Shown: positions 1 to 47,826, numbered from the stretch's first letter. The stretch: 64,000 nt of DNA from an uncultured Planctomycetota bacterium (GCA_963784995.1 CAWATZ010000006.1:200853-264852), one strand, 5' to 3'. The notes: a model not told the origin generated them from the sequence alone. A program made the numbers and translations.

Positions 1-211
1 CCGTCGAAGAAACCGATCACCTCTGCAGCCGGGCGGATTGGCTGGAGTTGGCTCAGGACGTGTCCGACCCATTCATGGTACAGCGTCGCTGCCCGTTCCG
101 GCCCGATGGTCACGGCGAGGCGCGTCTTGACCTTCCCGGGCTCCGGATTCTTCAGGAAGACGAGGACGGTCTCGCGTGCCGTTGTCAATGCGGCCCCTCC
201 TCCCAAGGAGA

Positions 212-1252
212 CTATCCCGTGATGGCCCCCTGGCAACCGGAGCCGCTGCCCGCGGTGCAGCCGTAGCAGTGCGGCCCGGTCACGATGGGCCGGTCCGCCA
301 GGGTCGTGAGATCGCAGTCGCGGACGTGCCGGGGCAGTCCTGGCATCAGCTCCAGGTCGAGCATCTGATTGAAGTCGCAGTCGTACAAGCGCCCATCCCA
401 GCCGACCGAGAGCGTGGTCCGGCACATGAGTCCCTCAACGGCCCGCGGGTTGTAAGCGGCAACGAGCTTGTCCAGGTACACCTCGTACCGGTCGCTGGCA
501 AGCAGGTCCTCCAGGAAACGGCTGATCGGCATGTTGGTGATGGTGAACAACTGCGTGAAGACAATCCCGAAGCGAGCCAGCAGTTCGCGCCGATACGCCG
601 CTTCCAGCACCGGCTGGCTCGGGGGCAGCGTGGGGCCGACGGGGTTGTAGACGAGCGTCAGGTTCAGACCCGTGTCCAGCTGACCGTAGCCGATGGCGTT
701 GAGTCGGCGCAAGGCCTCGATGGATTTGTCGAAGACGCCAGCCCCGCGCTGCCGATCCGTGTTCTCCGGTCCGTAGCACGGCAGCGAGGCGACGATCTCG
801 ACACGATGGCGGGCCAGGAAGTCCGGCAAATCCTCGAAGCGGGGAAGCAGCAGCACCGTGAGATTGCAGCGGTCGATGATGCGCTTGCCCAGCGTGCTCG
901 CCTGTTCGACCAGCCAGCGGAAGTGCGGGTTCAGTTCCGGAGCGCCACCCGTTATGTCCAGGGTCGGGATCGCTCCGCGCTCCAGCACGTCGAGGCAGAC
1001 CTGCATGGTCTCGCGGGACATCACCTCCTGCCGATCCGGCCCGGCATCGACGTGGCAGTGCCGGCACGTCTGGTTGCACAGCTTGCCGACGTTCACTTGC
1101 AGGACCTGGATTCCGCAGGCCCGCAGCGGCCACTGGCCACTTGCGGCAAGAGTTGCCTCGAAGGGAGGAATTCGCCCCTGGGCCAGCACCTGGCGTTGCC
1201 GGGCGGAGTTCGCCAGCGGGCTGTTCTGTCGCAGGAGGGTTAGCTGAGTCAT
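212..1252 (-). CDS. Radical SAM/Cys-rich domain protein (ArsS-like)
   Basis: CNQTCRHC (CxxxCxxC) radical SAM motif near the N-terminus and a Cys-rich C-terminus (CYGCTAGSGSGC). Start ATG at 1252 with GGAG 3 nt upstream; the longer ORF back to 1453 has no family-like N-terminus. Confidence 0.55.
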   Translation of the reverse strand: MTQLTLLRQNSPLANSARQRQVLAQGRIPPFEATLAASGQWPLRACGIQVLQVNVGKLCNQTCRHCHVDAGPDRQEVMSRETMQVCLDVLERGAIPTLDITGGAPELNPHFRWLVEQASTLGKRIIDRCNLTVLLLPRFEDLPDFLARHRVEIVASLPCYGPENTDRQRGAGVFDKSIEALRRLNAIGYGQLDTGLNLTLVYNPVGPTLPPSQPVLEAAYRRELLARFGIVFTQLFTITNMPISRFLEDLLASDRYEVYLDKLVAAYNPRAVEGLMCRTTLSVGWDGRLYDCDFNQMLDLELMPGLPRHVRDCDLTTLADRPIVTGPHCYGCTAGSGSGCQGAITG

Positions 1253-1593
1253 CTCCGGTTCCTTTACAAGCTCAATCCACCCTCTCTCCTGGAATGAAAA
1301 CAAACAGGTCCGCCGCCGGTCCATTCCGCAGCAGCTCCCACGCGGCCAGCGACACCACCGTTCGCCGGTCGCGCTGGGCGAACTTGGCGCAGTCGTCGTG
1401 CTGCCTGGTGGGCGGCATGCCAAACAGCACCTGGTAAAACGCCACCGACGCACGCAGATCGGAGACGTAGAGGGAACAGGTGAAAGCGAACAGTCATGGT
1501 TGCTCTCCGGCCTGTTGATCAGGGCAGTGACATTCTATAAACTGTTTGATTGTTGTGTGCCGGCCGACCGACTGGCGTCGCGGAGGGTGCTTG

Positions 1594-3154
1594 ATGCCTG
1601 GCCTTTCGATCCGTCTGAGTCTGTGTCTGACCTGCCTCGCCGCGTTGCCGGCAGCCCACGCCGCCGACCCGACCGACCCTCGGCAACTGGCCGCCCGCAT
1701 CGACCGCCGCCTCGCCAACCGCTGGGAAGCAGCCGGCGTGAAGCCGGCCGACCGCAGCGACGATGCCGAGTTTCTCCGCCGCCTCTCGCTCGACCTCACC
1801 GGCAAGATCCCTTCCGTCGCCGAGGTTCGCCGCTTCCTGGCCGACCGCGCACCCGACAAGCGAGCCGTCCTCGTCGAGCGAATGCTCGCCGGTCCCGGTT
1901 ACGTCACGCACTCCGCCGGGACCTGGCGTCGGCTGCTCGTTCCCGACAGCCGAAAATCAAGTCGGCCGCGAGGCAGCCGTACTCGCACTGGAGAAATGGC
2001 TCCAGAAGCAATTCGCCGACAACGTCGGCCTCGACCGGCTGGCCCGCGAGCTGCTCACCTTCTCGCTGGACGAAACCCGGCCCGGCCGGGTCGATCCCGC
2101 CGAGCCGTCGCCGCGGATGTTCTACGCCGGCCGGGAGGAGAAGCCCGACGAACTGGCCGCGTCGATGACGCGCCTGTTCCTGGGCGTCCGGCTGGAGTGC
2201 GCCCAGTGCCACGATCACCCCTTCGTTCGCTGGAAACGGCAGGACTTCTGGAGCCAGGCCGCCTTCTTCACCAGCCTCCGCCGTCCCGCGGCAGCGACCC
2301 GCGCATTGACCATCCCCGGCACGGAACGCACCGTCCGGGCCCGGTTCCTCGATGGCCAGGCGCTGCCCGACGGCAAGGGTGATGGCCGGCCCGTCCTTGC
2401 GGATTGGCTAACGAACTCCGAGAACCCGTTCTTCGCCCGGGCCGCCGTCAATCGGCTGTGGGGCCAGTTCTTCGGCGTCGGTCTGGTCGATCCGGTCGAT
2501 GACATGACCGAGGAGAATAAGCCCAGCCATCCCGAACTGCTCGATGAGCTGGCCCGTGCCTTCGTGGTCAATCGCTTTGACCGCAAGGTCGTCATCCGCG
2601 CCATCGTGCTGTCGGACGCTTACCAGCGGAGCAGCGTCCTGAATTTAGCCCCGAAGGGGCGACAGTCAATAGACCAGGGCGTGAGCCCTGGGTTAGGCGC
2701 AGCTCCGCCCGATCCGCGTCTGTTCAGCCGGATGAACGTCAAGAGCCTGACTCCGGAGCAGGTCTACGACAGCCTGATCGAGGCCACCGGCTACCGGGGC
2801 CGGGAGATCGCCCGCCAACGCGCTCAGCTGCTGACGCGCTTCCCAGGCGTCGAACAGGTGCTGGAAGGCCAGACCGGCATCCCGCAGGCCCTGGCCCTGA
2901 TGAACGGCGACCTGCTGACCAGCGCCCTCCGCCTGGACGGCGACAACACCCTCAGCGCCGTCGTCAACAGCCCGTTCCTGGACACGGCCGGACAGGTCGA
3001 GACGCTGTTCCTGGCCGCACTCGGCCGGCCGCCTCGTCCCGGGGAAAAGGCTCGCATGGTTGCCCACGTCGAGAAGAGTTCCGCGAAAGGCATCGCCCTG
3101 AGCGACGTCTTCTGGGCCCTGCTCAACAGCGCCGAGTTCGTCCATAACCACTGA
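1594..3154 (+). CDS. Secreted DUF1549 (PSCyt2) / DUF1553 (PSD1) protein with an apparent +1 frameshift near 1935-1950
   Basis: A signal peptide and the RRLSLDLTGKIPS...DKRAVLVERML motif are in frame 1. The PSD1 part (CAQCHDHPF...) continues in frame 2 from about 1940. Confidence 0.6.
2647..2692. repeat. Solo arm of the family-C palindromic element, inside the PSD1 coding region with the frame kept open
   Basis: 45/46 identity to arm 2 of the palindrome at 37998-38043 (agccccgaaggggcgacagtcaatagaccagggcgtgagccctggg). Read through as ...LNLAPKGRQSIDQGVSPG.... Confidence 0.6.
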
Positions 3155-5949: not shown

Positions 5950-7194
5950 ATGTCCTGCCGCATTGCGTTGCTTGTGCTGTTCCTGACCAGCTCGCTGGCC
6001 TCCGCGGGCGACTGGCCGCAATGGCTTGGCCCCAATCGCGATGGGGCGTCGGCCGAGACCATCAACGCCTGGAAGGAAGCTCCGAAAACCGTCTGGCGTC
6101 AAGTGGTCGGCGAGGGCTACAGCGTTCCGGTCGTGGCCGCCGGGCGGGTCTTTGTGCATGCCCGCGTGGCCGGCAAGGACGAGGAAGAATTGCTGGCCCT
6201 GGACGCGGCCAGCGGCAAGCAGCTCTGGCGCACCTCCTACAAACGCGCTCCCTATTCGAGCATCATCAACAACGGTCCGCAGGCGACACCCTGCGTGGTT
6301 CGCGGCCGGGTCTACACCTTCGGCATCACCGGCGTCCTGGGGTGCTTCGAGGCCGAGAGCGGCAAGGAAATCTGGAGGGTGGACGCGCCGAAGCAACTGA
6401 AGACCCGGGTGCCGCAATTCGGCATGACCTGCTCGCCGCTGGTGGTCGGCAATCGCGTCCTGGTCGCCGTCGGCGGCAAGGGCAGCGCCGTCGTCGCCTT
6501 CGACGCCGACACCGGCGAGGTCGCCTGGAAGGCGCTGGACGGGCCGATCAGCACGGCGTCGCCGATCACCTACCTCAACCGGGCGAAAAAAGACATGGCC
6601 TCGCTGGAGGCGGTCTTCATCAACAACCGCAGCCTGGTGGCGCTGAATCCCTTTGACGGCGAGGTCAGCTGGGAGTACGCCCTGTCGGACCAGGCGGTCG
6701 GCACGGCCCCGTCGCCGGTGGCGGTCGGCGACTTGCTGCTGGCCAGCACGGTGAAGGCCGGCGGCATCGGCGTCAAGCTGACGCACGAGGACGGCAAGAC
6801 GACCGCGGACGGGGCCTGGAAGAACGCGGACCTGACCGGCTATTTCTGCACCCCGCTGGCCGTCGGCAAGGACCACCTGTACGCGGTGACCTCGACGCTG
6901 CTGCCCCAGCCGACCAGCACGCTGCGCTGCATCGACGTCAAGACCGGAAAGGAGGTCTGGAGCGAGCCGAAGATCGGCATCTTCCACGCGGGCCTGGTGC
7001 GGACCGGCGGCAACCGGCTGCTGGTCCTCAACGATAGCGGCCTGCTCCGGCTGGTGGAACACGACCCCAAGGGCTACCGCGAGCTGGCGAAGGCCCAGGT
7101 ATGCGGCTCGACCTTCGTGACGCCGGCCCTGGCCAACGGCCGGCTCTATGCCCGGGACAACAAGGGCGTGGTTTGTGTCCAGTTGGGGGAATGA
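5950..7194 (+). CDS. PQQ-like beta-propeller repeat protein (BamB-like), secreted
   Basis: Signal peptide. GDWPQW...G.VWR...G.VYV.. repeats typical of PQQ enzyme repeats. Confidence 0.75.
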   Translation: MSCRIALLVLFLTSSLASAGDWPQWLGPNRDGASAETINAWKEAPKTVWRQVVGEGYSVPVVAAGRVFVHARVAGKDEEELLALDAASGKQLWRTSYKRAPYSSIINNGPQATPCVVRGRVYTFGITGVLGCFEAESGKEIWRVDAPKQLKTRVPQFGMTCSPLVVGNRVLVAVGGKGSAVVAFDADTGEVAWKALDGPISTASPITYLNRAKKDMASLEAVFINNRSLVALNPFDGEVSWEYALSDQAVGTAPSPVAVGDLLLASTVKAGGIGVKLTHEDGKTTADGAWKNADLTGYFCTPLAVGKDHLYAVTSTLLPQPTSTLRCIDVKTGKEVWSEPKIGIFHAGLVRTGGNRLLVLNDSGLLRLVEHDPKGYRELAKAQVCGSTFVTPALANGRLYARDNKGVVCVQLGE

Positions 7195-9143: not shown

Positions 9144-10490
9144 TCACAGGTCCGGCTGGAGCAAGCGAACGTGCCTCCCCTGCCGCTCCAGCAGCGCCTC
9201 GGCGGCCAGGTAGCCGCTGCGCACCGCTCCCTCCATCGTGGCGGGCCAGCCGGTGTTTGTCCAGTCACCGGCCAGCAGCAGGTTCCGGATCGGCGATGCC
9301 TGGCTCGGCCGCCACCGGTCCACGCCAGGGACCACGCTGAACGTCGCGGCATGCTCCGTCACCACCCGTCCGCGCAGCAGCCGAGCCTTGCGGGCCTCGG
9401 GAAACAGGCTCGCCAGCTCCTCCACGATCCGCCGTTGCACCTCCTCGTGCCCCAGGCCACGGAACTCCCGGGCGGCACTGACCACCACCTGGACGTAATG
9501 CTCGCCGGGGGAGGACTGACCTCGGTTGAAGAGCCACTGACCTAGCGTTTGGAGCAGCACCACGTGCGGCAGCCGGGTGATCGGCCGATCGTACCAGAGA
9601 TGGACGCTGGTTATTGGCGAAATCTCCAGCCGACGCAGGTTGGCGAAGGTCGGCTCGCTCTCGACCACGTTCTCCGGCAGCAGGTCGAGCAATCGGTCAA
9701 AGGGCACCGCGGGGATGAACCAATCAGCCTCCACGGTGCTACCGTCACGCATTCGCAATTGCTGGATTCGGCCGTCGGTCAGGGTAAGCTGCTTGCCCCC
9801 CTGTCCCAGCAGCAAGCGGACCCCGTGCTTGTCGAGCCACCCCTGCAGCTCCTGACCATAGAGCCGGCCCAGCGGCACCGTGGGCACCGACACCTCGAAT
9901 CCTCGGCGATGGCGCAGGAAAGCGTCCACGAACACCTTGCGGGCGTATTTCAGCCCGATCCGTTCCGGCGTCTCGTTCAGGGCGCTGACCAGGACCACGC
10001 TCCAGAAGCGTTCGATGACGCCGGGCGTCTGGCGATGTCGTTGCAGCCACTCCAGGAACGGCACATCGGCATCGGCGGGCGTGCGCTTCAGACAGGCCAG
10101 GGCCCAGGCGATCCGCAGTTTCTCCAGCGGCCCGAGGTAATGCGCCCCCAGGAACGCCCGGGCCAGGTGCAGCGGCGCGGGCAGCGGGTCGGCCTGGAAC
10201 TTGCTGATCCGGCGGTCGGGGGTCATGAAGTAGAGACACGGTTGCGGCTGCAGCAGGTGCTGGATGCCGACGGTCCGGCAGAAGTGGGCCAGGTTGGTGC
10301 AGCAGCCCATGCTGACGTGCTGGCAGGCGTCGATCAGCTGGCCCGTGCTGGTGTCGGTGAAGCTGCCGGCCCGGCCGCCCAGGCGGTTGCGCGACTCCAG
10401 CACGGTCACGTCCAGCCCCTGGCCGGCCAGCGCTGTCGCCGCCGCAAGTCCGGCCAGTCCGCCGCCGACTATGATCACCCGCTCCGCCAT
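9144..10490 (-). CDS. FAD-dependent amine-oxidase-family desaturase (HpnE-like squalene-associated desaturase)
   Basis: VIIVGGGLAGLAAA Rossmann N-terminus. ...LESRNRLGGRAGSF...QHV.MGCCTNL matches the HpnE / phytoene-desaturase-like pattern. Confidence 0.5.
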   Translation of the reverse strand: MAERVIIVGGGLAGLAAATALAGQGLDVTVLESRNRLGGRAGSFTDTSTGQLIDACQHVSMGCCTNLAHFCRTVGIQHLLQPQPCLYFMTPDRRISKFQADPLPAPLHLARAFLGAHYLGPLEKLRIAWALACLKRTPADADVPFLEWLQRHRQTPGVIERFWSVVLVSALNETPERIGLKYARKVFVDAFLRHRRGFEVSVPTVPLGRLYGQELQGWLDKHGVRLLLGQGGKQLTLTDGRIQQLRMRDGSTVEADWFIPAVPFDRLLDLLPENVVESEPTFANLRRLEISPITSVHLWYDRPITRLPHVVLLQTLGQWLFNRGQSSPGEHYVQVVVSAAREFRGLGHEEVQRRIVEELASLFPEARKARLLRGRVVTEHAATFSVVPGVDRWRPSQASPIRNLLLAGDWTNTGWPATMEGAVRSGYLAAEALLERQGRHVRLLQPDL

Positions 10491-10871
10491 TGCTTTCTCC
10501 GCATTTCCTTGGCTGCCTGGCCCAGGAACACGGTTGAAGTGTACTGCAGGTCAGTGCGTTTTGCCCAGGGCAGATCGGAGGAGCGCGGAATGGACCTCTG
10601 ACGCAAAGCAACGGCAGTCGTCTCCTGGCAGGCTGGCAGGGAAGCCGAAAACATCCGTTTGCTATCGGCGGGAGTCGCTCAGCGACAGCCAGGGACATCG
10701 CCCGGCACGAGCGGCCTTGCCCCTCTTCTGACACGCTCTGGCAGGTGAGTGCGTCGCCTTCTCTCCGGACGGTGCCACCCTGGCCAACTGCGGCGAGACG
10801 CCCGCGAGGGCCGGCGAGGTGCTGCTCTGGCGGAGCGGCCGGCAGCTGGAGTTGGGCGAGCGGTGCTCAGA

Positions 10872-11050
10872 CAATCGAAGCCGGCCTGCCTGCCCTGCCG
10901 GCCACTTTGCTGGGAATGGCGGAGACGCCGGAAGCAGTCCGGCATTGTCCCACAGATGCCAGGAAGGGGCATTTCGGCGCGTGCCTGCCACGCGCCAGGG
11001 TATTCGGGAGGGGCTGGCGTTCAAGCTGCCTCGCTGTCAATCCGTGCCAG
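10872..11050 (+). repeat. Conserved noncoding element, copy 1 (candidate structured RNA or cis-regulatory leader)
   Basis: About 80% identical to the reverse complement of 44925-45105. Both copies carry a hairpin at the same position with different stem sequences (gccgga/tccggc here, gccagag/ctctggc in copy 2). Confidence 0.45.
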
Positions 11051-11117
11051 CCAGCAGCAAGGGCAGGCACGGTCCATTCGGAGTGGCTGCGATCCCTTGT
11101 TGCTTCCCAATCCCGAT

Positions 11118-11214
11118 GGCCGAACGCCAAGGATTCGATCCGAACTGCCGGCAGACACCGCGACCGTCTGCCAAGCCGGATCGGCAGTTCGGATCGAATC
11201 CTTGGCGTTCGGCC
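11118..11214. repeat. Perfect 33-bp inverted repeat (hairpin) with a 31-nt loop that holds a nested 6-bp hairpin; lies at the 3' end of the CPBP gene
   Basis: Arm 11118-11150 ggccgaacgccaaggattcgatccgaactgccg is the exact reverse complement of arm 11182-11214. The loop contains gcagac...gtctgc. Confidence 0.8.
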
Positions 11215-11221
11215 CGGTTTA

Positions 11222-11911
11222 TCAGGAGTAACCCATCACTGCAACGATATCGAATAATGCGTGCAGACAGATCCCAGGCACCAAGCTCCCTTGCCACAAG
11301 AAAAGGCCAGCAAAGAGCAGCCCGACAACGAAATAGACTGGGAACAGAACCAGCCCAGCGATGCCATGGACAAAGACGAATGCCAGCGTCGCCAAGCCGA
11401 CGGCCCGCCAAGTGCGCATGCCACGCCCCTTCAGGAGACGGATGCTGAACCCGCGGTAAACCAACTCCTCGCAAAACCCCGCAGTGAAACTCATGAAGAT
11501 CCAGAACACTCGTTCGCCCAAAGTATTCGGGGACATCCCCGAGCGCTCCGATAATGGTCCATCGTTGGCGGCCGGGCTTTCGTGCAGGAGAATCAAGGCG
11601 AGACCGGCTACGAGGGGGATTCCAACCATCGCTGCGACGCGGACCGCCGAGAGATCAAGCCCGATGTCGTCCAGTCGCCCGCCTGCCCGCTTGAGAAGCA
11701 CGACGATCAAGGCAACGCTGCCCCAGTGAAGCAGAGCAATCGAGGCCCAGAACGACAGGTAGAATGCGTGGTTGCGCCGGAACCAGAGGCCGACCGACCA
11801 AGGTAAGAAGCTGTTGGCCAGGTAGAGGATCGGTAGCCCGACGAACACGAGCAGCACCTGCCAATGGGGTAAGCTCGTCGCAAACGTCGGAGCGGGTTCC
11901 TTTGTGGCCAT
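11222..11911 (-). CDS. CPBP family intramembrane metalloprotease (CAAX-protease-like)
   Basis: Polytopic membrane protein with the EELVYRG and FxxxH motifs. Confidence 0.8.
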   Translation of the reverse strand: MATKEPAPTFATSLPHWQVLLVFVGLPILYLANSFLPWSVGLWFRRNHAFYLSFWASIALLHWGSVALIVVLLKRAGGRLDDIGLDLSAVRVAAMVGIPLVAGLALILLHESPAANDGPLSERSGMSPNTLGERVFWIFMSFTAGFCEELVYRGFSIRLLKGRGMRTWRAVGLATLAFVFVHGIAGLVLFPVYFVVGLLFAGLFLWQGSLVPGICLHALFDIVAVMGYS

Positions 11912-37944: not shown

Positions 37945-38043
37945 CCCAGGGCTCACGCCCTGGTCTATTGACTGCCGCCCCTTCGGGGCTGATTCTTAGC
38001 CCCGAAGGGGCGGCAGTCAATAGACCAGGGCGTGAGCCCTGGG
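37945..38043. repeat. Family-C palindromic element: perfect 46-bp stem, 7-nt loop, in the divergent promoter region upstream of the ECF sigma gene
   Basis: cccagggctcacgccctggtctattgactgccgccccttcggggct gattctt agccccgaaggggcggcagtcaatagaccagggcgtgagccctggg. Partial copies at 2647-2692 and 22612-22645. Confidence 0.85.
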
Positions 38044-44924: not shown

Positions 44925-45105
44925 GCAAATAAAACACTCCTGGCACGCCATGCAGCGAAATGCGGCCAGCCTTGCCCGAATACCCTGGCAGATGGCAGGC
45001 AGACAGAAAAATGACCCTCAAAGACGCCCGTCCGACAGCCAGAGGCACGCTCTGGCCTGTCCGCCACTTCAAAAGAATTGGCAGGCAGGGCAGGCAGAGA
45101 AGTGG
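44925..45105 (-). repeat. Conserved noncoding element, copy 2 (inverted relative to copy 1 at 10872-11050)
   Basis: Reverse complement aligns with 10872-11050, with a 50-nt core at about 80% identity (catttttctgtctgcctgccatctgccagggtattcgggcaaggctggcc). Contains ggcaggcag repeats. Confidence 0.45.
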
Positions 45106-45290
45106 AGACCTGTCGCGCCTCTGCTCCTTCCGGAACGGTGAAAGACACGCGAAATCGGTTCCCCTTTCCCTTCCGGAACGGTAGAATCCTGTCAGCATCG
45201 TCTGGCCCCGGAGTGCTCACGGGCTGGCGTCCGACCAGAGCAGTCGGCCCGGACTCCGTGAAGGAACCGGGCGCGAGGGGGAGCAAGGGC

Positions 45291-46184
45291 ATGCAGTGGC
45301 ACCCGATCCTGGCTCAGCTGTTGCGGCCCCTGGTGCAGGACTACTACGAGGTCCAGACCGATTTGCCGGTTGGCGATCTGCCGCGCCAGGCCGACGTTGT
45401 CCTGCTGCGACGCCGGGCGGCCGATCCTCCCTTTGTGGGCATCTGGCGGCATCTGCGCGTCTGGAACGTGCTGGAGTTCAAGGGGCCCAGCGACGACCCG
45501 GCCTTGCGCGATCTGGATCTGCTGCTGGAGCTGGGGCTGGGCATCGATCGGCGGCTGAACGAGCAGCGGCAGGAGCAGAAAGAGCCGTTGCTGAAACGTG
45601 TCGAGGTCGCCTGGTGGTTTCTCGCCAACCACCTGGGACGGCGGTTTCGGGCCGAGGTGGAAGCGGTGGTGGGATCACCCTTGCAGCAACTGGGCGAGGG
45701 GCTTTGGTCCTGTCCAGCGCTGGGGCGGGTGCTGTACCTGATTAGTCGGGACGCCTTGCCGGTGGAGCGGGAGAGCGTGCCGCTGCATCTGGTGACCGAG
45801 GAACCGTTGGAGCGGGTGGAGGCCCTGGCCCGCGTGCTGGTGCAGCAACCGGGCTTCTGGGATCTGTACGGGGGCTGGCTCGCCCAACTCAACCCCGAAA
45901 TCTGGGAGGAGCTTCAAACCATGATCCGCAAGATGGGTGCCGAGCCCAATCTCGATCTGCGCTGGCTGATCGATCAGGTCGGGCTCAAGCAAGTCATCGA
46001 CCAGGTTGGGCTCAAACAGGTCATTGACCAGGTGGGGTTCAAGCAGATCATCGACTTGGTGGGGTGGCAAGAGGTGTTCCAGACAGTTCCCCTTGGAGAA
46101 GTCATCGCCGCCATGGGAATGGACTGGTTTGTATCTCAGCTAAGCCCGGAACAACTCCAGGAGCTGAAAAGCCGCTTGCCTTGA
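45291..46184 (+). CDS. PD-(D/E)XK nuclease-family protein (Rpn/YhgA-like 'transposase_31') with C-terminal DUF4351-like region and tandem 9-aa repeats
   Basis: D...E.K motif (QADVVLL...NVLEFKGPSDD). C-terminal IDQVGLKQV x4 encoded by 27-bp tandem repeats at about 45955-46062. ...SPEQLQELKSRL tail. Confidence 0.5.
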   Translation: MQWHPILAQLLRPLVQDYYEVQTDLPVGDLPRQADVVLLRRRAADPPFVGIWRHLRVWNVLEFKGPSDDPALRDLDLLLELGLGIDRRLNEQRQEQKEPLLKRVEVAWWFLANHLGRRFRAEVEAVVGSPLQQLGEGLWSCPALGRVLYLISRDALPVERESVPLHLVTEEPLERVEALARVLVQQPGFWDLYGGWLAQLNPEIWEELQTMIRKMGAEPNLDLRWLIDQVGLKQVIDQVGLKQVIDQVGFKQIIDLVGWQEVFQTVPLGEVIAAMGMDWFVSQLSPEQLQELKSRLP

Positions 46185-46596
46185 GGCCGCTCCCAGCCTC
46201 AGTGGACCAAGCCGCCTCCAGCATTCCCGGAAAAAATCCCGCAGCAACCATTGCCCTGCACGCCTCGCCCCTCTATCATATCTTCCTGACAATCTGGTGA
46301 GTATCTTATCCAGAGTGGCTGAGGGTACAGGCCCTGCGATGCCACAGCAACCGGCTTCCCCCAGGAAGTGCTGGTGCTACCTCCTGCCCGGGACTCCCGG
46401 GAGAGATAAGATCGTGTGCCTCACACGCCTCTTCTTCTCGATCAGACCCGCGCGATCGACCCCGATCACCGCGGTCTTCCTTCCTGGATGATACACACCT
46501 CCACAACAATGACCGCCAGGACCAGCGCGAGTGCCTCGGCCTGGCCGTGAATTGCTTAAGGGAGGGTCCTTCGTGTCGTCTTCTTTTGTCCGCGGA

Positions 46597-47826
46597 ATGA
46601 AGTGCCGGCTGTGCGGCAAGCTGTATCCGGTCGGTCCGATCCAGTTCTGCGAGGAGGATTTCGGCCCCCTCGAGGTCGATTACGATTACACCGCCATCGC
46701 CGAGGCCGTCAGCCGGGAAAAGATCGCCCATCGGCCCTGGAACATGTGGCGCTACGAGGAGCTGCTGCCCCTGGACCGGGAGCCGACCGTTGGCACGCAG
46801 GTCGGGGGCACGCCGTTGCTCAAGGCGGATCGGCTGGCCGCCGCCCTGGGCGTCGAGAAGCTCTGGCTCAAGAACGACGCCGTCAACTTCCCCACGCTGT
46901 CGTTCAAGGACCGCGTCGTGGCCGTAGCCCTGAGCAAGGCCAAGGAAATGGGCTTCACCACCGTCGGCTGCGCCTCCACCGGCAACCTGGCCAACAGCGT
47001 CGCCGCCAACGCCGCCGCGGCGGGTCTGAGCAGTTACATCTTCGTGCCGGCCGATCTGGAGCGCTCCAAGATCCTCAATACCAGCGTCTACGGAGCCCAT
47101 CTGATCGGCGTCCGCGGCACCTATGACGAGGTCAACCGGCTCTGCACCCAGGTGGCCTTCAAGTTCGGCTGGGCGTTCGTCAACATCAACCTCCGGCCGT
47201 TCTACGCCGAGGGGTCCAAGTCGATGGGCTTCGAGATCGCCGAGCAGCTGGGCTGGCGCACCCCACAGCACGTCGTCTGCCCGATGGCCGGCGGCAGCCT
47301 GATCGGCAAGATCCACAAGGCGTTTCACGAGCTGCACAAGGTCGGCCTGCTGGAGCAGGAGCCCCGCTGCAAGATGTACGGGGCTCAGGCTAGCGGGTGT
47401 AGTCCGATCAGCACGGCGGTCAAGAACGGCTGGGACTCCCATCGCCCGGTGCGCAAGCCCTGCACCATCGCCAAGTCGCTGGCCATCGGCGACCCGGCCG
47501 ACGGCTACTTCGCTGCCCGGGTCATCCGCGAGACCGGCGGCTGGTCCGAGGACGTCTCCGATCAGGAGATCGCCCAGGCGATGGTCCTGCTCGGCCAAAC
47601 CGAGGGCGTCTTCGCCGAGACGGCCGGCGGCGTCACCGTGGCCGTGGCCCGCAAGCTGATCGAGCAGGGGCGGATTCCGCGCGACGAGGAGATCGTCCTG
47701 TGCATCACCGGCAACGGCCTCAAGACGCAGGACGCCGTGGTGGACTACCTGGAAAAGCCCGCGGTCATCGGGCCGACCCTGGAGGAGTTCGAGCCGCTGG
47801 TGGCCGGGGAAGCGGTGTTGGTGTAA
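46597..47826 (+). CDS. thrC: Threonine synthase (variant with an N-terminal Zn-ribbon)
   Basis: CRLCGK...C zinc ribbon, PLP-lysine motif (PTLSFKDRVVAV) and ThrC conservation. The start could be GTG 46573. Confidence 0.8.
   Translation: MKCRLCGKLYPVGPIQFCEEDFGPLEVDYDYTAIAEAVSREKIAHRPWNMWRYEELLPLDREPTVGTQVGGTPLLKADRLAAALGVEKLWLKNDAVNFPTLSFKDRVVAVALSKAKEMGFTTVGCASTGNLANSVAANAAAAGLSSYIFVPADLERSKILNTSVYGAHLIGVRGTYDEVNRLCTQVAFKFGWAFVNINLRPFYAEGSKSMGFEIAEQLGWRTPQHVVCPMAGGSLIGKIHKAFHELHKVGLLEQEPRCKMYGAQASGCSPISTAVKNGWDSHRPVRKPCTIAKSLAIGDPADGYFAARVIRETGGWSEDVSDQEIAQAMVLLGQTEGVFAETAGGVTVAVARKLIEQGRIPRDEEIVLCITGNGLKTQDAVVDYLEKPAVIGPTLEEFEPLVAGEAVLV

Follow-up and report, generated by a model that had tools for sequence, protein, structure and literature searches.

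A 64,000-nucleotide stretch of DNA from an uncultured Planctomycetota bacterium (GCA_963784995.1, CAWATZ010000006.1:200853-264852), called the window below, carries two inverted copies of a conserved non-coding element, one near 10.9 kb (copy 1) and the other near 45.1 kb (copy 2). Together with seven full-length homologues from metagenomes, these copies are genuine members of a previously undescribed, dispersed, non-coding intergenic family of a narrow lineage of Gemmataceae (Planctomycetota). The core of the element is 133 nt long, and its subgroups reach about 185–200 nt. In our opinion, the family is best explained, with a probability of roughly 45%, as a new modular element of the ERIC/BOX-like type with conserved recognition boxes. 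The element family is new, and its general kind, a bacterial dispersed non-coding element or a candidate small RNA (sRNA), is known.

The Two Copies in the Window and the Anatomy of the Element

Positions 10886-11018 (+) align without gaps with the reverse complement of 44965-45097, 88 of the 133 positions (66%) being identical (blastn E 3e-13), and a fainter similarity continues past this core to about 11050 in copy 1 and about 44925 in copy 2. The match between 10872-11050 and 44925-45105 noticed in a preliminary description of the window is thereby borne out as a gapless core with weaker tails. The identical positions are clustered, with longest runs of 15, 14 and 9 nt; permutation tests of the two longest runs and of the sum of squared run lengths gave p = 0.0014 and p = 0.0034, respectively. 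The window has exactly two occurrences of a 27-nt pattern, TGCCTGCCAnnnGCCAGGGTATTCGGG, which is absent from all of 100 shuffles. Searches of the window with a two-sequence hidden Markov model (HMM), a nine-sequence HMM and a covariance model with filters off found no further copies, the covariance model giving 134.7 bits for copy 1, 127.5 bits for copy 2 and 12.6 bits for the next best hit.

Hereafter, orientation A (strand A) is the strand displayed for copy 1 (plus), and orientation B (strand B) is the opposite one. The blocks kept in both copies are box A (CTGCCTGCCCTGCC.GCCA), TGGCGGA, GGG.CATTT and box B (TGCCTGCCA-nnn-GCCAGGGTATTCGGG-nnnn-GCTGGC), box B being the same at 27 of 30 positions. 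Across the family, the element is modular, comprising box A joined to a hairpin P1 that is conserved in sequence, a sequence-variable hairpin P2, a conserved middle block GATGCCAGCAAGGGGCATTT and the box B module, TGCCTGCCAC-nnn-GCCAGGGTATTCGGGAG...CTGGC, all flanked by subgroup-specific 5' and 3' extensions. The features of the two copies are as follows.

10886..11018, + (orientation A): copy 1, conserved 133-nt core, gapless match to copy 2 (nhmmer E 6e-43, 134.7 bits)
10886..10905, +: copy 1, box A (CTGCCTGCCCTGCCgGCCAC), sharp common 5' edge of the family; its 3' half is the 5' strand of P1
10899..10922, +: copy 1, hairpin P1 (C.GCCAC / loop TTTGCTGGGA /.TGGC.G), weak here and strong in most members
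10927..10943, +: copy 1, hairpin P2 (gccgga-agcag-tccggc), z-score (z) -3.0
10982..11018, +: copy 1, box B module (TGCCTGCCA-cgc-GCCAGGGTATTCGGG-aggg-GCTGGC), exact 27-nt pattern
11019..11069, +: copy 1, 3' extension (..TCCGTGCCAGC..), common to L021, L020 and L016, terminating in AGGGCAGGCA
44965..45097, - (orientation A): copy 2, conserved core (nhmmer E 5e-40, 127.5 bits)
45078..45097, -: copy 2, box A (CTGCCTGCCCTGCCtGCCAA)
45038..45056, -: copy 2, hairpin P2 (gccagag-cgtgc-ctctggc), z -3.0, extendable to an 11-bp stem with one bulge
44965..45001, -: copy 2, box B module (TGCCTGCCA-tct-GCCAGGGTATTCGGG-caag-GCTGGC), exact 27-nt pattern
44925..44964, -: copy 2, weakly conserved 3' extension (..GGCGTGCCAGG..), then GTGTTTTATTTG; homology to +41 with L024 and L021

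The sequence of copy 2 is found identically on Logan contig L008. In the surroundings of copy 1, TGGCGGAGCGGCCGGCAGC at 10828-10846 repeats the element segment 10917-10935 at 84% identity, 89 nt upstream, and an inverted box A-like motif, GGCAGGCTGGCAGG, lies at 10627-10644, 240 nt upstream of the copy. These two motifs may be debris of additional copies.

Members of the Family Outside the Window

The pattern CTGCC-N(2-8)-GCCAGGGTATTCGGG was searched for in 185,579 species-representative genomes and in metagenomes of the JGI. Among the species genomes, seven matches were obtained, all at chance level and in unrelated taxa, and the source genome itself was not returned. In the metagenomes, the pattern matched 18 contigs, 7 of which contain a full-length homologue (nhmmer E 1e-47 to 3e-34; covariance model 100–151 bits). 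A covariance-model search for homologues, proposed in the preliminary description, has in this way, combined with the pattern search, added seven full-length members, and the conserved noncoding element postulated there is genuine. Together with the two copies in the window, the full-length members number nine; the seven metagenomic ones come from three samples, five of these seven from the single metagenome Ga0182024. The metagenomic members and their neighbouring genes are listed below.

L022, 640-815, +: full-length homologue; an unknown gene and vapBC
L024, 16-191, -: full-length homologue; IS66 transposase fragments
L021, 1330-1512, +: full-length homologue; MacB/FtsX permease and aspartyl protease
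L020, 498-672, +: full-length homologue; WD40-PSCyt1
L016, 523-697, +: full-length homologue; membrane protein
L030, 1620-1796, -: full-length homologue; HlyD
L019, 1605-1790, +: full-length homologue; ComM

Gemmataceae was judged to be the host lineage from the names given to homologues; the window has a G+C content of 59–69%, and the flank of L020 encodes a planctomycete cytochrome domain.

Known families gave no match. Using cmscan with Rfam 15, only chance matches of miRNA type on other segments were obtained, both for the window at gathering thresholds and for the two loci at E up to 10, and the seven homologous loci had no match at the element at E up to 0.01. Plasmids, phages and viral contigs contain no match to the element, and a text search of the literature with the sequence of box B was likewise empty. 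An origin from tRNA or tmRNA was considered and rejected, neither type being found in the window.

Conservation and Modularity

Conservation within the family is arranged in blocks. In the nine members, the mean pairwise identity is 0.85 in box A, 0.90 in the left half of box B and 1.00 in the CTGGC that follows box B, all three lying outside the search pattern, and only 0.40–0.64 in the variable segments. CTGGC is invariant in 9/9 members and is retained across a 10-nt insertion into the loop of L019. Box A and box B are 100 nt apart in six members; the distance is 99 nt in two others and 102 nt in the ninth. The motifs TGCC(T)GCC and GCCAG are repeated within the element.

In most pairs, homology sets in at -108 relative to box B, where box A starts; it extends to +25. 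An additional 30–45 nt on the 5' side is common to copy 1, L022, L016 and L020, and two distinct 3' extensions exist, one in copy 1, L021, L020 and L016 (homology to +57..+83) and the other in L022 and L024, so that 5' and 3' extensions are differently combined among members. The closest relative of copy 1 is L022, at about 85% identity, vs 66% to copy 2, and the closest pair in the whole family is about 87% identical.

Two further contigs, L013 and the near-identical L027, match model positions 75-135 only (33 bits), with a short CAGC...GCTG hairpin, box B and CTGGC. Since they carry the box B module alone, box B is a separable module. On these contigs, a complete group II intron starts 50–90 nt downstream of the module in orientation B, on the opposite strand. 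On L013 it occupies 1-1960 (-), matches RF02005 (92 bits) and encodes a reverse transcriptase of 416 aa that has no endonuclease domain; its domain V is located where the contig ends.

Coding Potential

A small protein was left as an alternative in the preliminary description. The peptide LPALPA..GHF..CLP.ARVFG.GW is indeed found in one frame of both copies, the frames are free of stops, and 24 of 44 residues are identical in one frame; an ATG occurs at a matching place on the opposite strand. However, all six frames give 19–24/44 identical residues between the window copies, so no frame is prominent. Mismatches fall on the three codon positions of the proposed frame in the ratio 10/16/19, without third-position bias. 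The spacing of 99, 100 or 102 nt between box A and box B means that no frame spans both boxes, which refutes a small protein. A six-frame peptide profile of both copies had no match at E up to 10 among 5.8 billion proteins, and the small open reading frames (ORFs) had no Pfam match. The sequence noticed as "ATG/GTG at the same place" does exist, but it equals the 3' strand of hairpin P1 (GTGGC). A gene for a small protein, in the LPALPA...ARVFG.GW frame or in an ATG-initiated frame on the other strand, is accordingly the least credible of the explanations considered here, and the element has no coding capacity.

Hairpins and Strand

The element does have hairpins at fixed positions, but the data do not establish an RNA fold on one particular strand. 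The folding energy of the whole element is ordinary, with a mean z of about -0.8 on either strand in the nine members. Locally, P1 and P2 exceed shuffles in stability on both strands. P1 (C.GCCAC, a U-rich loop and GUGGC.G) is conserved in sequence, loop included, with 86.7% of cells paired and a family mean z against dinucleotide shuffles of -2.4 and -2.8 on strands A and B, respectively. P2 has a mean z of -1.2 and -1.5 on the two strands, being strong in copy 1, copy 2, L022 and L020 and weak in L024, L021 and L016, while L019 and L030 have other hairpins in the same place; only 61.7% of its cells are paired in a common register. The box B region has z of about 0 and is no more stable than shuffles. 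GCCAG of box B can pair with CTGGC in a 5-bp stem, P6, that encloses the conserved loop; in L019, this loop bears the 10-nt insertion. P6 is uninformative because none of its positions varies.

The stem-loops described at the outset are both present, at 10927-10943 and 45056-45038. Their registers, however, differ by 1–2 nt: distinct hairpins occupy one position, and the pairs are not compensated column by column. A few two-sided changes do occur, at 53-63 (GC/CG/AU), 51-65 (CG/AU) and 21-44 (UG/AU/GC). The covariation score of the nine sequences, of which seven had been found through box B, is 0.095–0.114 vs 0.087–0.106 for shuffles, and 106–172 of 500 shuffles are as high, with the same outcome on the sequence alignment and on the model-fitted one. 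Taken with the ordinary folding energy of the whole element, this does not establish the suggested covariation typical of a functional RNA, and the evidence for action as a folded RNA is weak.

An assignment of the strand by the ratio of G-U to A-C cells was tried and abandoned: the ratio is 17:2 in P1, favouring strand A, and 1:8 in P2, favouring strand B, and this conflict leaves no consistent strand signal. A consensus scan, to be read with the poor definition of planctomycete promoters in mind, detected neither a sigma-70-like promoter nor an intrinsic terminator on the two strands of copy 1 and copy 2, and a common AT-rich -10 element upstream of box A is absent. Other signals were examined and set aside. 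A candidate sigma-54 promoter on strand B, TGGC-nnn-TGGCAGGCA with GG-N10-GC spacing, has a -12 element AGGCA instead of TTGCA; a second, overlapping GG-N10-GC candidate is missing in copy 1, copy 2 and L030; and GGA motifs of the CsrA type, about 3.2 per copy vs about 2 expected, are unconvincing.

Gene Neighbourhoods

Copy 1 lies in a spacer of 731 nt between hpnE (9144-10490, -) and a gene for a CPBP/Rce1-like protease (11222-11911, -), and copy 2 in a spacer of 463 nt between a 7TM-HD gene (end 44827, +) and an unknown ORF (45291-46184, +). The product of hpnE is 71% identical to an NCBI-named HpnE from a Gemmataceae bacterium. The ORF following copy 2, taken earlier for a PD-(D/E)XK gene, has no Pfam or NCBIfam match; an identical copy of it is found on Logan contig L008 (run ERR11523662).

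In orientation B, both copies are co-directional with all four flanking genes, copy 1 standing 395 nt upstream of hpnE and copy 2 193 nt upstream of ORF 45291-46184. This arrangement is what suggested a cis-acting, structured, riboswitch-like 5' leader of these two genes. The other members do not bear it out: none of the seven precedes hpnE or a homologue of ORF 45291-46184, the neighbours of the nine members are unrelated, and their orientation is mixed. Several settings are tandem and one is convergent, namely that of L021, which is flanked by two gene 3' ends. According to gene calls made with a codon-usage model trained on the window, the elements of L022 and L016 are co-directional with their neighbours in orientation A, and under the leader proposal L022 counts as antisense to both of its neighbours. 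The three closest hpnE loci, with orthologues at 84, 84 and 80% identity, have no element within 8–21 kb and no synteny. A leader function is therefore very improbable, and the element is independent of its neighbouring genes.

In relatives, the block purA-uppS-cdsA-phoH-7TM-HD is kept, and the spacer that follows it measures 37, 70 or 301 nt. Of the three contigs with 7TM-HD relatives (77–86% identity), the two readable ones, L031 and L032, contain no element, and the relative at 86% has no room for it because its spacer is 37 nt. Approximately 76 kb of five related contigs (L009, L011, L012, L031 and L032) contain no copy. Both window copies are situated at synteny breakpoints, and synteny stops exactly at the copies. 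The gene ends that face box B are on strand B in 5/6 cases; the idea that box B is regularly turned towards the 3' end of a gene running in its own direction, to which L022 (vapBC) is the exception, was not significant and was rejected.

The same spacers and the rest of the window contain several other features:

11118-11214: 97-nt palindrome with 33-nt arms, 100% complementary, between the CPBP/Rce1-like stop and copy 1
45126-45139 and 45169-45182: CCTTCCGGAACGGT, an exact 14-nt direct repeat that includes the palindrome TTCCGGAA and is situated between copy 2 and ORF 45291-46184; the second copy is followed by TAGAAT
46303-46412, +: SAM-I riboswitch (RF00162, 81.5 bits, E 1e-17), just downstream of the ORF that follows copy 2 and upstream of a gene for a pyridoxal phosphate (PLP)-dependent enzyme (46531-47826)
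2647-2692 (-), 37945-37990 (+) and 37998-38043 (-): three Acido-Lenti-1 RNA motifs (RF01687, about 50 bits each)

Palindromes similar to that at 11118-11214 follow the 7TM-HD stop in relatives (L031, about 6110-6160; L032, about 11820-11900), and all of them are probably terminators typical of the lineage. The CCTTCCGGAACGGT repeat may be an operator or promoter; a similar motif, CCGTTCCGGA, is present upstream of the L019 member. Two of the three Acido-Lenti-1 motifs form a tight inverted pair, and their host is apparently a Gemmataceae planctomycete, not an acidobacterium or lentisphaera.

Termini and Relation to Transposons

Copy 1 has a perfect inverted 10-mer at its ends, TGCCTGCCCT at 10887-10896 and AGGGCAGGCA at 11060-11069 (p 0.013), and L020 has a weaker inverted terminus at the same relative position (p 0.07). 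The other 7/9 members have no inverted termini above chance. No target-site duplication is recognisable, and no empty site could be aligned, the relatives without an element after the 7TM-HD gene having different DNA beyond this gene in each genome. The two inverted copies, with box A outermost, were also considered as the ends of a 34-kb transposon (10.9–45.1 kb). The interior encodes purA, uppS, cdsA, phoH, the 7TM-HD protein, an XPB-like helicase and others, without a transposase, and its gene block is syntenic in element-free relatives; this interior is core genome, and the idea of transposon ends was rejected.

Next to the L024 member, on its box A side, two fragments of an IS66-family transposase, a C-terminal and then an N-terminal piece, occupy 546-2323. 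On L019, about 150 nt (1215-1365) duplicate an internal comM segment just downstream of the intact comM and about 240 nt before the element, which may be a scar of integration or duplication.

Interpretation

Like the elements of the ERIC/BOX type, the Gemmataceae element is non-coding, intergenic, found in either orientation, modular and conserved between species. If it belongs to this type, it would be deposited or retained in intergenic DNA by gene ends, in either orientation and regardless of the function of the neighbours, and would act at the level of nucleic acid. The invariant unstructured boxes would then be recognised, in a sequence-specific manner, by a partner acting in trans, which could be a protein or a complementary nucleic acid, while the P1 and P2 hairpins could form on either strand. 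Whenever transcription of a neighbouring gene passes through the element, the hairpins would come to lie in the untranslated region of that gene, where they could affect 3'-end formation or stability. Membership of the family, the lack of coding capacity, the independence from neighbouring genes and the local hairpins are shown here, whereas a recognition partner, an active strand and an influence on expression are inferred. In favour of the ERIC/BOX-like explanation are the nine full-length members with unrelated neighbours, their mixed orientation, the absence from relatives, the conservation in blocks, the modularity, the hairpins of either strand beside unstructured boxes and the lack of matches in Rfam, plasmids, phages and viral contigs.

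Several observations weigh against the ERIC/BOX-like explanation. Repeats of this type are usually present in tens to hundreds per genome, and here there are only two copies in 64 kb and none in the relatives sampled. Near-identical copies are lacking (about 87% in the closest pair, 66% in the window), so recent spread is not shown. Terminal inverted repeats are not consistent, copy 1 (p 0.013) and the marginal L020 (p 0.07) being the cases found, and no target-site duplication, empty site or candidate mobilising enzyme was detected. The conservation of box B among the seven metagenomic members is imposed by the search because an exact box B was required, and decayed copies are invisible to it. 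Finally, perfectly kept boxes beside near-random segments indicate purifying selection on each copy, which fits a host-beneficial RNA gene equally well.

Such an RNA gene is the main rival. The copies would be stand-alone genes of trans-acting small RNAs of about 140–190 nt with several diverged paralogues per genome, like Qrr, AbcR and the rhizobial "cuckoo" alpha-r14; the two boxes, of which box A is rich in C/U on strand A, would stay single-stranded and serve as seed or protein-binding regions, and P1, P2, P6 or the tail stems would be scaffold or terminator hairpins. Block-wise conservation with invariant unstructured boxes and variable stems, the intergenic position indifferent to the orientation of the neighbours, the sharp common 5' boundary at box A, as for a transcription start, the P2 hairpin kept with different sequences and the excess of G-U cells in P1 on strand A all agree with this proposal. 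The greater nearness of copy 1 to L022, which is from another organism, than to copy 2 suggests old paralogues kept under selection. Yet neither copy has a sigma-70-like promoter, an intrinsic terminator or a shared AT-rich -10 upstream of box A; covariation is not significant; the whole-element fold is no more stable than shuffles; the strand signals conflict, P2 pointing away from strand A; the group II intron of L013 is on strand B, as are five of the six gene ends facing box B; and box B occurs detached in L013. We regard a family of small RNA genes, like the roles given in it to the boxes and stems, as possible, though somewhat unlikely. A new class of structured or protein-bound RNA specific to Gemmataceae, with the invariant box B loop GGUAUUCGGGAG closed by GCCAG/CUGGC as a self-contained functional domain that recurs beside the group II intron of L013/L027 and a pairing of box A with box B closing a multi-helix fold, seems rather improbable.

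Still lower stands the possibility that the copies are immobile relics of a classical transposon, that is, miniature inverted-repeat transposable elements (MITEs) or solo ends of insertion sequences (IS), the boxes being former transposase-binding sites and the similarity reflecting descent from active master copies, not a host function. The inverted terminus of copy 1 and the weaker one of L020, the TGCC(T)GCC and GCCAG motifs recurring inside the element, the IS66 fragments beside L024, the patchy distribution and the position at synteny breakpoints point in this direction. Seven of nine members, however, have no such termini, target-site duplications are not seen, the IS66 fragments, situated on the outer side, are the sole transposase sequences adjoining any member, and the 34 kb between the inverted copies is core genome; moreover, neutral remnants would not be expected to retain 27/30 positions of box B while the remainder nears random similarity. 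It is more doubtful again that the element is a regulatory module of double-stranded DNA, in which clustered sites (TGCCTGCC, GCCAG/CTGGC) for a nucleoid-associated or regulatory DNA-binding protein would act on adjacent promoters. Such a module would agree with the strongest conservation lying in unstructured boxes with repeated short motifs, with the lack of an overall strand preference and with the box spacing held at 99–102 nt. But the neighbouring genes have no common function, L021 is between two gene 3' ends and hence has no promoter to regulate, and binding to duplex DNA leaves unexplained P2, which is conserved in position and not in sequence.

Comparison with Known Elements

ERIC elements resemble the Gemmataceae element in size (about 130 nt), the lack of coding capacity, a strictly intergenic location in either orientation near gene ends, the absence of an associated transposase, unusually strong conservation between copies and species and the tolerance of internal insertions. 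In contrast, ERIC is one long imperfect palindrome, whereas the element described here consists of two local hairpins and unstructured boxes; ERIC is present in tens to hundreds of copies in enterobacteria, and here two copies were found in 64 kb, in another phylum and without sequence similarity.

BOX elements of Streptococcus pneumoniae (boxA-boxB-boxC) are likewise modular mosaics, intergenic and without coding capacity, with modules that can be separate or recombined, and their possible pairing of terminal modules has a parallel in box A UGCCCUG and box B CAGGGUA. There is no sequence relation, BOX exceeds 100 copies per genome, and its repeated internal boxB units have no counterpart here. 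MITEs such as Correia/NEMIS of Neisseria and RUP are similar in size range, non-coding character, intergenic location and patchy distribution, but their terminal inverted repeats and target-site duplications are not consistent features of the new family, which also has no near-identical copies. REP/BIME (REPIN) sequences differ more, being palindromic units of 20–40 nt with a GTAG or CGTC head, often in inverted pairs and with a RAYT gene; the Gemmataceae element is a non-palindromic unit of 133 nt, and its P1 stem, GCCAC/GTGGC, has no such head.

With multi-copy sRNAs (alpha-r14 "cuckoo", Qrr), the family shares diverged paralogues per genome, short C/U-rich boxes, variable stems and an intergenic position in any orientation; it is longer than most of them, its box B is also detached, and no promoter or terminator was found. 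Families in Rfam have no likeness to either copy or to the seven homologues.

To our knowledge, almost no non-coding elements have been characterised in planctomycetes. If the element is a repeat family, it would provide a marker for genome rearrangement in Gemmataceae, both window copies being at synteny breakpoints, and a handle on the factor that recognises the invariant boxes. If it is a family of small RNAs, it would be among the first multi-copy regulatory RNAs described in Planctomycetes. Either way, a false lead is removed, since the element does not serve as a leader controlling hopanoid biosynthesis (hpnE).

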